23,929 nucleotides of DNA from NCBI GenBank assembly GCA_005191425.1, contig SUPR01000053.1:1-23929 (forward strand), read 5' to 3'. Source of the stretch: Candidatus Helarchaeota ASGARD archaeon Hel_GB_B (GTDB lineage: Archaea > Asgardarchaeota > Lokiarchaeia > Helarchaeales > HEL-GB-B). The translations under genes were made by a program, and so were the position numbers. Position 1 is the stretch's first letter. Each line of letters opens with the position of its first letter. Of this stretch, positions 19,700 through 22,646 are shown piece by piece. The notes under the pieces were generated by a model. It made no database searches. It saw nothing but the letters and a program-made list of their open reading frames with translations, and was not told where the DNA came from.

Positions 19700-20497
19700 T
19701 TATTTTTCTAAATATTTTTGAATCCGTCTTAAAAATAGAACTGCAGCAACAGCTGCTCCAAAACCATTTCCAATATTAACTACTACTAAACCCGGGGCAC
19801 ATGATTGTAACATGGTAATAAGCGCCCCAACACCTTTTTCACCAAGTCCATAACCTACCGGGGCTGGTACTCCAATAACCGGAACATCTACCAAACTAGC
19901 TACCACTGATGGCAATGTACCCTCCATCCCAGCTACTACTATAATTATTTCCACATCTGATTCTAACATTTCCTTTAATGGCACAAAAAGCCTGTGGATA
20001 CCTGAAATACCAACATCATAAGCTGTTAAAACTTTCCCCCCCATTACTTCTATGATCATTTTAGCTTCTTCAGCTATATATATGTCTGACGTCCCTGCAG
20101 TAATTATCCCAACTCTACCTAATAACTTATTTTTCTTAATATTTTCTGCCTTAAAATAAGCTAACTTTCCTTTTTCATTATAAATAAAATTAAATTCTTT
20201 ATTTAAATAATCTGCAACTTTCTCTTTAATTATTTCAAACTGCTCTCTTGAAACTCTACTTATTAATAGATGCCCCTTCTTACCAATTACCTGCCGCGAT
20301 ATTTTTATAATATCTTCAATTTCTTTGCCTTCAGCATATAATACTTCTGGAAATCCACTTCTAAATTCACGATAAAGATCAAAAGATGCTAATTCCTCAA
20401 TTTTTTCGATATGAAAACTCTTTATTTGTTTTTCTGCATCGTTAATTGATATTGTTCCTGACTTTAAATCTTCTAAAATTTTTCTAATCGAATCCAA
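19700..20497 (-). CDS. larB: Nickel pincer cofactor biosynthesis protein LarB (AIR-carboxylase-like)
   Basis: RSGFPEVLYAEGK, TAGTSD, DVGISGIHRL, VAGMEGTLPSVV, PVGYG and NIGNGFGAA. Confidence 0.95.
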   Translation of the reverse strand: MDSIRKILEDLKSGTISINDAEKQIKSFHIEKIEELASFDLYREFRSGFPEVLYAEGKEIEDIIKISRQVIGKKGHLLISRVSREQFEIIKEKVADYLNKEFNFIYNEKGKLAYFKAENIKKNKLLGRVGIITAGTSDIYIAEEAKMIIEVMGGKVLTAYDVGISGIHRLFVPLKEMLESDVEIIIVVAGMEGTLPSVVASLVDVPVIGVPAPVGYGLGEKGVGALITMLQSCAPGLVVVNIGNGFGAAVAAVLFLRRIQKYLEK

Positions 20498-20536
20498 ATT
20501 ACTTCATCCATATTTTTTATGTTATTTTCGTTATAT

Positions 20537-21019
20537 TTAATGTATATGTAAATCTTTTTCATTGCCATGATGATGGTGGTGAATATCTTCGCCCCTTGTC
20601 GAAAATTCCAGTAATATTTGCTTTACCTGTCTATATTCTGGCCTTGAATTTAAATCCTTAATCAATTGGTTGATCAAATTTGAATTGCCCTTAACTGCAA
20701 TTATTACCATACAGTTATTTTTATCTAAGTGTATATGAAGCGTAGCATCAATTATCTCATAATATTCATGCTGTAAGTCGTTTAAATCGTCCATCATCCC
20801 AATTTTCTGCGTATGGTCAAATATAATTGAAATTGTACCCGCTTTTAATGTCGCTTTATCTTTATATTTTGTCCAATTATATTCTGTAATAAAATTTCTC
20901 ATAGCTTTTCTTATCGCATCTGACCTACTCATCCCAATCTCTTCTCTTATCGAATCGAATTCTTCTAAAAGATCATGCGGTAAACTTACACTAAATCTCT
21001 GAAATTGTTCCTTCTCCAT
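20537..21019 (-). CDS. nikR: Nickel-responsive regulator NikR with a His-rich C-terminal tail
   Basis: Ribbon-helix-helix RFSVSLP...SRSDAIRKAMR; Ni site LQH...LHIHLDKNNC; tail HHHHHGNEKDLHIH. Confidence 0.93.
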   Translation of the reverse strand: MEKEQFQRFSVSLPHDLLEEFDSIREEIGMSRSDAIRKAMRNFITEYNWTKYKDKATLKAGTISIIFDHTQKIGMMDDLNDLQHEYYEIIDATLHIHLDKNNCMVIIAVKGNSNLINQLIKDLNSRPEYRQVKQILLEFSTRGEDIHHHHHGNEKDLHIH

Positions 21020-21766: not shown

Positions 21767-21997
21767 TACATCAACCTTTTAATAATAAAAAATTTGACCT
21801 TGTCTTTTAATTATTCCAATATTGAACCTTTTTTAACTTTACAAAAATTTATTTTTAATAATTTCAAATTATTATTGTCATATCTTGAACTTTAAATTTA
21901 TCTTGTATTTTTTTTATATTTCGTCCATTTACATTTTTGAGAATTTCTGTCCCCAATAAACTACTTAAACTTTTAATTAAAATTAATAAAAAATAAA

Positions 21998-22087
21998 AGC
22001 CGGACCCGGGTTTATCGGTCTATTCGCATTCGATCCCGGGACCTTTGCATTACCAGTGCAACGCTCTTCCAACTGAGCTAGCCCGGC
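21998..22087 (-). tRNA. tRNA-Thr(GGT) with a 17-nt intron at 59/60 (22012-22028)
   Basis: Full cloverleaf: GCCGGGC/GTCCGGC, GCTC/GAGC, TTGCA-CTGGTAA-TGCAA, CCGGG/CCCGG and U73. Removing the intron gives 73 nt. Confidence 0.95.
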
Positions 22088-22108
22088 TGATTTTAAAATT
22101 ACGATAAA

Positions 22109-22281
22109 TGGTGCAGGGAGGGGGATTTTCAATATGCATCGTATTGGTGCACTATTTTGAACCCTCGTACTCCTACGAGACAGGATCTTAAGTCAGGACG
22201 CTCTATTCAAGCGCTGTCCTGCGCCGATAGGTTGATCTCATCCAAAAATGAGACCATTTAACCGGGCTTGGCTATCCCTGC
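22109..22281 (-). tRNA. tRNA-Leu(TAA) with encoded CCA and three introns: D-loop about 21/22 (about 22227-22257), 32/33 (22192-22215) and 59/60 (22126-22155)
   Basis: GCAGGGA/TCCCTGC-A-CCA, GCC/GGC, CAGGA-CTTAAGA-TCCTG and a long variable arm CTC-GTAG-GAG. Removing 31+24+30 nt gives an 88-nt class II tRNA. Confidence 0.92.
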
Positions 22282-22646
22282 CTTAATACACAGCGGTAGC
22301 TCATTTATCTTCTGCCTAGCTTCTGTCTAAAGAGCCTTACATCACCCTGCTTAACTTTCTTTATTCTATTCACTCATAACCTTCTTTTTCATTTGTTTTT
22401 TTATTTATTACTACTTCTTTTTTTATTTAATATCTATACATCTTTTCTTTTAATAAAATTTTGATTATTCATTATTTATAAATTTTTATGTTCTCTCCTT
22501 TTTTTATTTAATCCTTTTACCAAAATTAAACTGATTATTTTACTCCTTAAAATTTCTCAGTATTCTCTTTATTTAAATCTGGTTCTTGTTATTTTATTTT
22601 AAAATGTGTTGCGATATTTTTCTCTTTAATATCTATTTTTCTTTTT

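Follow-up and report, generated by a model that had tools for sequence, protein, structure and literature searches.

A tRNA-Leu(UAA) gene with three non-canonical introns in an Asgard archaeon

Introns were found in 92-95% of the tRNA genes of Atabeyarchaeia and Freyarchaeia, with several introns in over half of the genes (Valentin-Alvarado et al. 2024, PMC11291895), and Supplementary Data 4 of that study lists, for Atabeyarchaeia-1 and -2, three-intron tRNA-Leu(TAA) genes with lengths of 182-184 nt. A survey of 90 Asgard genomes (Goswami et al. 2026, preprint, 10.64898/2026.10.13.758758) counted 2.2 inserts per gene in its focal families, against 0.9 in other Asgard archaea, and up to five in one gene; D-arm inserts were often missed by tRNAscan-SE, gains were repeated and lineage-specific, and an EndA with two paralogues was widespread. 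Up to four or five inserts in a single tRNA gene are on record for Asgard archaea (PMC11291895; 10.64898/2026.10.13.758758), and the statement in the original prediction for the DNA studied here, that triple-intron tRNAs are known mainly from Thermoproteales, is therefore out of date. For Thermoproteales, up to three BHB introns per gene are reported, for example in the D-loop, at 32/33 and at 59/60, which are cut by an (alpha-beta)2 EndA with a Crenarchaea-specific loop (Sugahara 2008; Fujishima 2010). Transposing intron families are described for this order as well. A loop lysine lets the EndA of Aeropyrum pernix cut relaxed motifs and D-loop motifs (PMC3241643), and Asgard archaea have an (alpha-beta)2 EndA with an L1 loop (Kaneta 2018, PMC5829648). 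Here, we describe a tRNA-Leu(UAA) gene in a window of 23,929 nucleotides (the whole stretch of DNA that was analysed). Its annotation as a tRNA-Leu(UAA) gene with three non-canonical introns is sound, and this kind of gene is already known.

Layout, copy number and neighbourhood of the gene

The gene is read on the minus strand from 22281 to 22109, with G1 at 22281 and the last A of the CCA at 22109; it starts with GCAGGGA-UA-GCC and ends with UCCCUGC-A-CCA. Excision of 22257-22228, 22215-22192 and 22155-22126 gave a sequence of 89 nt that was identified by ARAGORN as tRNA-Leu(taa); the exons have 24, 12, 36 and 17 nt, the variable arm is of class II, the anticodon loop reads CUUAAGA and the CCA is encoded. 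The features are, with the evidence in brackets:

22109..22281, minus strand: tRNA-Leu(UAA) gene, four exons and three introns, CCA encoded (in-silico splicing and a same-genus orthologue of the same layout)
22258..22281, minus strand: exon 1, 24 nt, acceptor 5' strand, D-stem 5' strand and D-loop to GGTTAA (splicing; mature positions 1-24 by BLAST)
22228..22257, minus strand: intron 1 in the D-loop (about 20b/21), 30 nt plus or minus 1, relaxed motif (motif, folding, motif-free alignment, relatives)
22216..22227, minus strand: exon 2, 12 nt, D-stem 3' strand, G26, anticodon stem 5' strand and C32 (splicing, BLAST; 12/12 identical to the same-genus genome G001)
22192..22215, minus strand: intron 2 at 32/33, 24 nt, HBh' without outer helix (motif, folding, compensatory change relative to G001)
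22156..22191, minus strand: exon 3, 36 nt, U33, anticodon UAA, anticodon stem 3' strand, variable arm, T-stem 5' strand and T-loop to A59 (splicing, BLAST; 35/36 identical to G001)
22126..22155, minus strand: intron 3 at 59/60, 30 nt, full hBHBh' (unconstrained MFE fold; present also in G001 and G005)
22109..22125, minus strand: exon 4, 17 nt, U60, T-stem 3' strand, acceptor 3' strand, A73 and CCA (splicing, BLAST)

None of the three introns is located at 37/38. This reading had been put forward in the original prediction, and it agrees with ARAGORN after splicing, with an alignment that is free of motifs (see below) and with G001. The mature length of 88 nt given there holds if the D-loop intron has 31 nt; with 30 nt, the mature form has 89 nt.

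ARAGORN found no tRNA in the whole unspliced window, and Rfam at gathering thresholds gave no match over the Leu(UAA) precursor or elsewhere in the window. The sole match of a permissive Rfam scan of 21900-22400 was a tRNA of 28 bits on the neighbouring Thr gene. Since the Leu(UAA) gene is missed by standard tRNA finders, an automatic annotation would lack the decoder for 5% of the codons, which could prompt a wrong inference of tRNA loss or of an altered code.

BHB-like motifs alone are weak evidence for introns, as they are common by chance: a loose candidate rule (central helix 4/4 and a flank of 2 bp) gave 54 candidates in this gene, taken as 169 nt. Automatic splicing, in which BHB candidates were enumerated, up to three were removed and, of the solutions accepted by ARAGORN, the one with the fewest introns was kept, gave spurious results and was not used for intron counts. 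A two-intron "tRNA-Pro" reading of the Leu(UAA) gene was a false product of this fewest-intron search, and a supposed second Leu(taa) at C46:2175-2295 is actually a tRNA-Lys(UUU) with two introns. As a check that makes no use of motifs, a compact reference was built from the 5' part of the gene of relative G002 and the 3' part of that of G003 and compared with the gene by gap-tolerant alignment. Exactly three inserts of 31, 24 and 32 nt were found, at gene positions 21-51, 64-87 and 127-158; they agree within 3 nt with the introns defined by motifs, and their removal restores the cloverleaf. Since the motif positions coincide with the inserts found without motifs and the cloverleaf is restored, the three introns are beyond what chance would give.

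A second tRNA-Leu(UAA) was not found in the 94% complete assembly, whether this was scanned for an anticodon-arm pattern or compared with the mature sequence by BLAST, which answers the question raised by the original prediction of whether an intron-less copy lies elsewhere in the genome. The weak BLAST matches at C96, C171, C142 and C122, which cover fragments of exons, do not represent tRNAs. In 1,232 long ORFs, TTA makes up 53% of the Leu codons and 5.1% of all codons and is the fifth commonest codon, so that the earlier impression of a dominant TTA was right. By the standard decoding rules, UUA is read by the UAA anticodon only. Because this is the only Leu(UAA) gene found, TTA dominates and UUA is read by UAA alone, the gene should be essential, and this argues against a pseudogene.

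A decaying locus whose function is supplied from an unassembled part of the genome would nevertheless have two observations on its side. The T-stem pair 50:64 (window positions 22164 and 22121) is an A.C mismatch, which is U-A in G001, and an assembly that is 94% complete and consists of 182 contigs could lack a second copy. The mismatch is probably not an assembly error, because the same bases are present in a contig of run X4, which comes from a different study. In G001, however, the gene has all three introns as well and is likewise followed by the tRNA-Thr, and 82 of the 86 exon positions compared (95%) but only 59 of 86 intron positions (69%) are identical; two of the four exon changes are at variable D-loop positions. 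The layout and the Leu-Thr tandem are kept in both congeners, the assembly gave no second copy by pattern or BLAST, and UUA accounts for 5% of all codons. We therefore regard decay of the locus as extremely improbable. At 50:64, both sides differ between this genome and G001 and pairing is not restored.

The same DNA is present in contigs of other public runs: X4 contains the whole gene, T-stem mismatch included, and X2 covers 22172-22400. No RNA run was listed for a 4.9-kb stretch or for a 501-base stretch with the tRNAs. In record 4 of run X2, both flanks match, and 22089-22154 is replaced by a diverged stretch of equal length (66 nt) that includes the spacer, all of exon 4 and the larger part of intron 3. 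The source of this contig is probably a relative, at strain or species level, that was present in the same vent samples.

The surroundings of the gene contain the following features:

22303..22308, minus strand: ATAAAT, possible TATA box 22-27 nt upstream of G1 (read from the sequence; a weak assignment)
22088..22108, minus strand: spacer between the two tRNA genes, 21 nt (read from the sequence)
21998..22087, minus strand: tRNA-Thr(GGU) with one 17-nt intron at 59/60, 22012-22028 (Rfam and ARAGORN after splicing)
21985..21997, minus strand: T-rich run after tRNA-Thr, likely an archaeal terminator (read from the sequence)

The ATAAAT at 22303..22308 is not conserved in G001. Unspliced, the tRNA-Thr(GGU) gene scored 28 bits with the Rfam tRNA model, just below the cut-off and with the T arm skipped; after splicing in silico, ARAGORN identified it as tRNA-Thr(ggt) of 73 nt. 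Its intron motif has the central helix AUCG/CGAU and the outer helix CCGGG/CCCGG, and its T-loop AUCGAAA has A, not U, at position 54. The Thr gene starts 21 nt after the CCA of the Leu gene, which leaves too little room for a promoter of its own, and an oligo-T run comes after it; the two genes therefore probably form one transcript. The Leu-Thr tandem is kept in G001. A nickel-related cluster adjoins the tRNAs (18438-21019, minus strand), encoding a LarC-type nickel insertion protein, an AIR-carboxylase (LarB-like) and a NikR regulator; it is located upstream of the gene for an ATP-dependent DNA ligase.

Splicing motifs, their folding and their conservation

Together with the flanking exon bases, each insert is predicted to form a BHB-type motif, canonical at 59/60, without outer helix at 32/33 and relaxed in the D-loop. 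The 59/60 motif comprises the outer helix GGG/CCC, the central helix TTCA/TGAA, the bulges AA|A and AA|T and an inner hairpin, and it was reproduced almost exactly by the unconstrained MFE fold of the whole 173-nt precursor. The 32/33 motif has the central helix CAGG/CCTG, the bulges AC|A and AC|T and an inner helix of 5 bp, and no outer helix. Both have a central helix of 4 bp, two opposite 3-nt bulges and at least one flanking helix. The D-loop motif consists of the central helix GGTT/AACC and the 8-bp inner stem GGTCTCAT/ATGAGATC, again with no outer helix, and its 5' bulge has 4 nt (AAAT) if the 8-bp stem forms. Because of this 4-nt bulge and the lacking outer helix, the motif is relaxed and its cut is uncertain by 1 nt, as had been expected; the coordinates and the named helices and bulges (CAGG/CCTG, TTCA/TGAA, GGTT/AACC and the 8-bp stem) of the original prediction were all correct. 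The predicted mature D-loop is one base longer than that of the relatives. That the precursor is spliced, and where exactly the D-loop is cut, is inferred.

In unconstrained folding, the central helix of the D-loop motif was populated to 1-3%, because CCGGU pairs with AUCGG instead. When only the acceptor stem and the 3-bp D stem were enforced, which gave a fold 2.4 kcal/mol above the global MFE, three of its four pairs reached probabilities of 0.96-0.97 and the fourth 0.23; in the same precursor, the central helix at 32/33 was at about 0.8 and that at 59/60 at 0.28-0.39. According to these models, the three motifs can be mutually compatible in one precursor, and as they may coexist, no fixed order of splicing would be required.

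A fixed order had been suggested on the grounds that the anticodon stem is sequestered in the helix of the 32/33 intron. The helix is indeed predicted to occupy this stem: in the modelled precursor, the CAGG of the anticodon stem pairs with CCUG of the intron and not with the 3' strand of the stem. This is, however, the normal geometry for any 32/33 intron, and the other two introns are not involved in it. Moreover, removal of the other introns in silico raised the probability of the 32/33 helix from 0.33-0.57 to 0.73-0.90, shifted the 59/60 helix by about 0.1 at most and left the D-loop helix at 0-3%, and the three motifs can share one cloverleaf-constrained fold. A fixed order thus appears unlikely to us; an obligatory order is not supported by the folding models, with which a kinetic order stays compatible.

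In comparison with G001, the interiors of the introns are largely rewritten, and the hairpin in every intron as well as the central helices are kept. In the inner helix at 32/33, U-A is changed to A-U and G.U to A-U. Leu(UAA) genes were also gathered from 28 further genomes of the class, in 24 of which the D-loop site could be scored by script. An intron just after GGUNAA was present in 22 of these 24, and the genes of G002 and G006 are compact there. The central helix of the D-loop motif is 4/4 with a 3-nt bulge in 18 of the 22 intron-bearing relatives, and it is likewise 4/4 in the gene of the window. Its fourth pair is C-G in 16 genes, A-U in one and U-A in one (the gene of the window), as counted over relatives that are not independent; its third pair is U-A or U.G, and C-G in G001. 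These changes are compensatory and support splicing of the relaxed D-loop motif. Since the site is kept across the class and the helix changes are compensatory, the D-loop intron seems to be old and held in place by its splicing motif. Towards its 3' end, the D-loop intron of many class relatives contains the element GGGUCAAGAC(C/U), which is conserved among them.

These data also bear on the alternative that the D-loop insert stays in the mature tRNA, where it would form a hairpin of 30 nt within the variable D-loop region, or is cut at other boundaries, so that only the inserts at 32/33 and 59/60 would be true introns. Such a reading would be in line with a relaxed motif that has a 4-nt bulge and no outer helix and with the low population of its central helix in unconstrained folds, and D-arm inserts were canonical in only 33% of the cases in the preprint (10.64898/2026.10.13.758758), where they are termed "intervening sequences". 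But the central helix covaries among the relatives (C-G, A-U and U-A at one pair), three of its four pairs are populated to 96-97% once the D stem is formed, and the compact D arms of the order relatives G002 and G006 demonstrate that the hairpin is dispensable for function. In addition, the EndA of A. pernix and a loop-grafted EndA of A. fulgidus cut a D-loop intron in vitro (PMC3241643). Retention of the insert, or a cut at other boundaries, is in our view quite improbable, and we keep to three introns.

Host genome, tRNA genes and splicing enzymes

The genome has 3.5 Mb in 182 contigs, a G+C content of 28% and a completeness of 94%. It encodes a full-length actin (PF00022, 446 bits, positions 5-408 of 410) and an ESCRT-II EAP30 protein (82.6 bits). 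A homologue of MCR_alpha is encoded at G000:C103:30835-31227 (plus strand), with 36 bits to PF02249 inside an open frame of 609 aa; it fits an alkane-oxidising Asgard archaeon of the Helarchaeales type. Because of the actin, the EAP30 protein, the MCR_alpha homologue and the G+C content of 28%, the genome is that of an Asgard archaeon and not of a member of the Thermoproteales, as had been surmised from the window alone. The relatives at class level look like Lokiarchaeia, and the order is probably Helarchaeales, as suggested by the MCR homologue and by the vent and sediment sources of the DNA.

ARAGORN found eight intron-less tRNAs, and ARAGORN or Rfam together identified 16 tRNAs in the 3.5 Mb. 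A search for a GC-rich acceptor combined with a T arm gave 30 candidates, 24 of which are longer than a compact tRNA, 12 of them by at least 45 nt; the heavily split tRNA system that had been proposed for this organism is borne out by these lengths. Judged by gene length, most of the tRNA genes are interrupted, many of them more than once and mostly at non-canonical sites.

Two EndA paralogues are encoded in the genome. The alpha subunit of 192 aa aligns end to end with the EndA alpha subunit of Aeropyrum pernix (E 2.5e-42). The alignment is gap-free in the specificity loop, where RKPK stands opposite EKPR and the loop lysine (K44 equivalent) is kept, and the Tyr, His and Lys of the active site are kept as well. 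The second paralogue of 198 aa has Ala at the position of the catalytic His. Furthermore, a match to RtcB was found with 568 bits. Two paralogues and a specificity loop are what would be expected for the broad-specificity endonuclease that the original prediction had called for; as deduced from the proteins, they fit an (alpha-beta)2 enzyme that may be able to cut relaxed motifs.

The following sequence of events can be proposed. The Leu(UAA) gene would probably be transcribed together with the downstream tRNA-Thr(GGU), and each of the three inserts would fold into its motif. A heterotetrameric (alpha-beta)2 EndA, whose catalytic subunit carries the specificity loop, would then cut both bulges of each motif, and RtcB would join the four exons to a class II tRNA of 88-89 nt. 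We consider it highly probable that the locus is a working, single-copy gene with inserts that fold as BHB-type motifs, are cut by an (alpha-beta)2 EndA and leave exons that are joined by RtcB.

Intron history and comparison with known systems

T-loop introns recur in several lineages of the class, and an intron at 59/60 is present in G001 and G005. Three introns are not the extreme, because the Leu(UAA) genes of some relatives reach 204-234 nt. Four loci of this size (L047-L050, from the class relatives G036, G008, G023 and G009; 204-234 nt) contain at least four inserts in Leu(UAA); two are in the D arm and one is in the T-loop, and L048 has one in the variable arm as well. The intron at 32/33 has a different distribution. 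The anticodon arm without interruption, GGACTTAAGATCC, occurs in each of the five other order members and in 92 of the 121 genomes of the class; the uninterrupted string GGACUUAAGAUCC was likewise found in 92 of the 121 class genomes, among them the five others of the order, compared to two matches for a reversed control. The uninterrupted anticodon-arm string was not found in either genome of this genus (g1), and among the class genomes searched, a 32/33 intron of Leu(UAA) was found only there.

The tRNA-Leu(CAA) of the same genome (G000:C36:25863-26014, minus strand; L056/L057) is interrupted at 32/33, 37/38 and 59/60 and shares the acceptor sequence GCAGGGA with Leu(UAA). Its 32/33 intron is present in G001 (L058) and absent in G003 (L060), G005 (L061) and G006 (L063), which represent three further genera of the order. 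A 32/33 intron in both of the UUR-reading Leu genes is thus confined to this genus. Leu(UAA) and Leu(CAA) are the only pair that was compared, and their 32/33 and 59/60 introns are unrelated beyond the bases required by the motif (UCCNGAC at 32/33). An origin of the 32/33 intron from a local duplication of the anticodon arm was rejected, since the shared UCCUGAC is required by the motif and hence is no evidence. It is a tentative idea, and we hold it to be rather doubtful, that the 32/33 intron was gained recently and in this genus alone and that its gain in Leu(UAA) is connected with that in Leu(CAA), for instance because an intron spread from one paralogous tRNA gene to the other and its sequence then turned over. 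A link between the two gains would make them a datable case for the still open question of how tRNA genes acquire their BHB introns. In the comparison across one class, the locus shows an old, positionally conserved D-loop intron beside an apparently young one at 32/33.

With respect to the EndA of A. pernix (PDB 3P1Z; PMC3241643), the enzyme of this organism has the loop lysine and the Tyr/His/Lys triad in common, together with a second paralogue that is devoid of the catalytic His; unlike in A. pernix, the second loop residue, R46, is a Lys, and the enzyme is known here from its sequence. Like the multi-intron tRNAs of Thermoproteales, the Leu(UAA) gene has three introns, located in the D-loop, at 32/33 and at 59/60. 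Unlike these, its host is an Asgard archaeon, and the introns of Leu(UAA) and Leu(CAA) are unrelated beyond the bases required by the motif, in contrast to the transposing intron families of Thermoproteales.

The closest resemblance is to the systems of Atabeyarchaeia and Freyarchaeia and other published Asgard archaea (PMC11291895; 10.64898/2026.10.13.758758), in that most tRNA genes are interrupted, many of them repeatedly and at non-canonical sites, and that D-arm inserts are missed by standard tools. Compared to the Leu(TAA) genes of Atabeyarchaeia, the intron sequences are unrelated, and the likeness is one of gene size and intron number. The lineage, which by its class relatives and MCR homologue would be Lokiarchaeia/Helarchaeales, differs as well, as neither of the two main texts names it as heavily interrupted. 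Only mildly new are the genus-specific 32/33 intron common to Leu(CAA) and the covariation that supports D-loop splicing, and the locus changes nothing that is known about how such introns work. In sum, the three-intron Leu gene fits the published Asgard picture point by point, the lineage is possibly new for the trait, and the locus extends the intron-riddled tRNA genes of these archaea by a well-supported case from another Asgard lineage.
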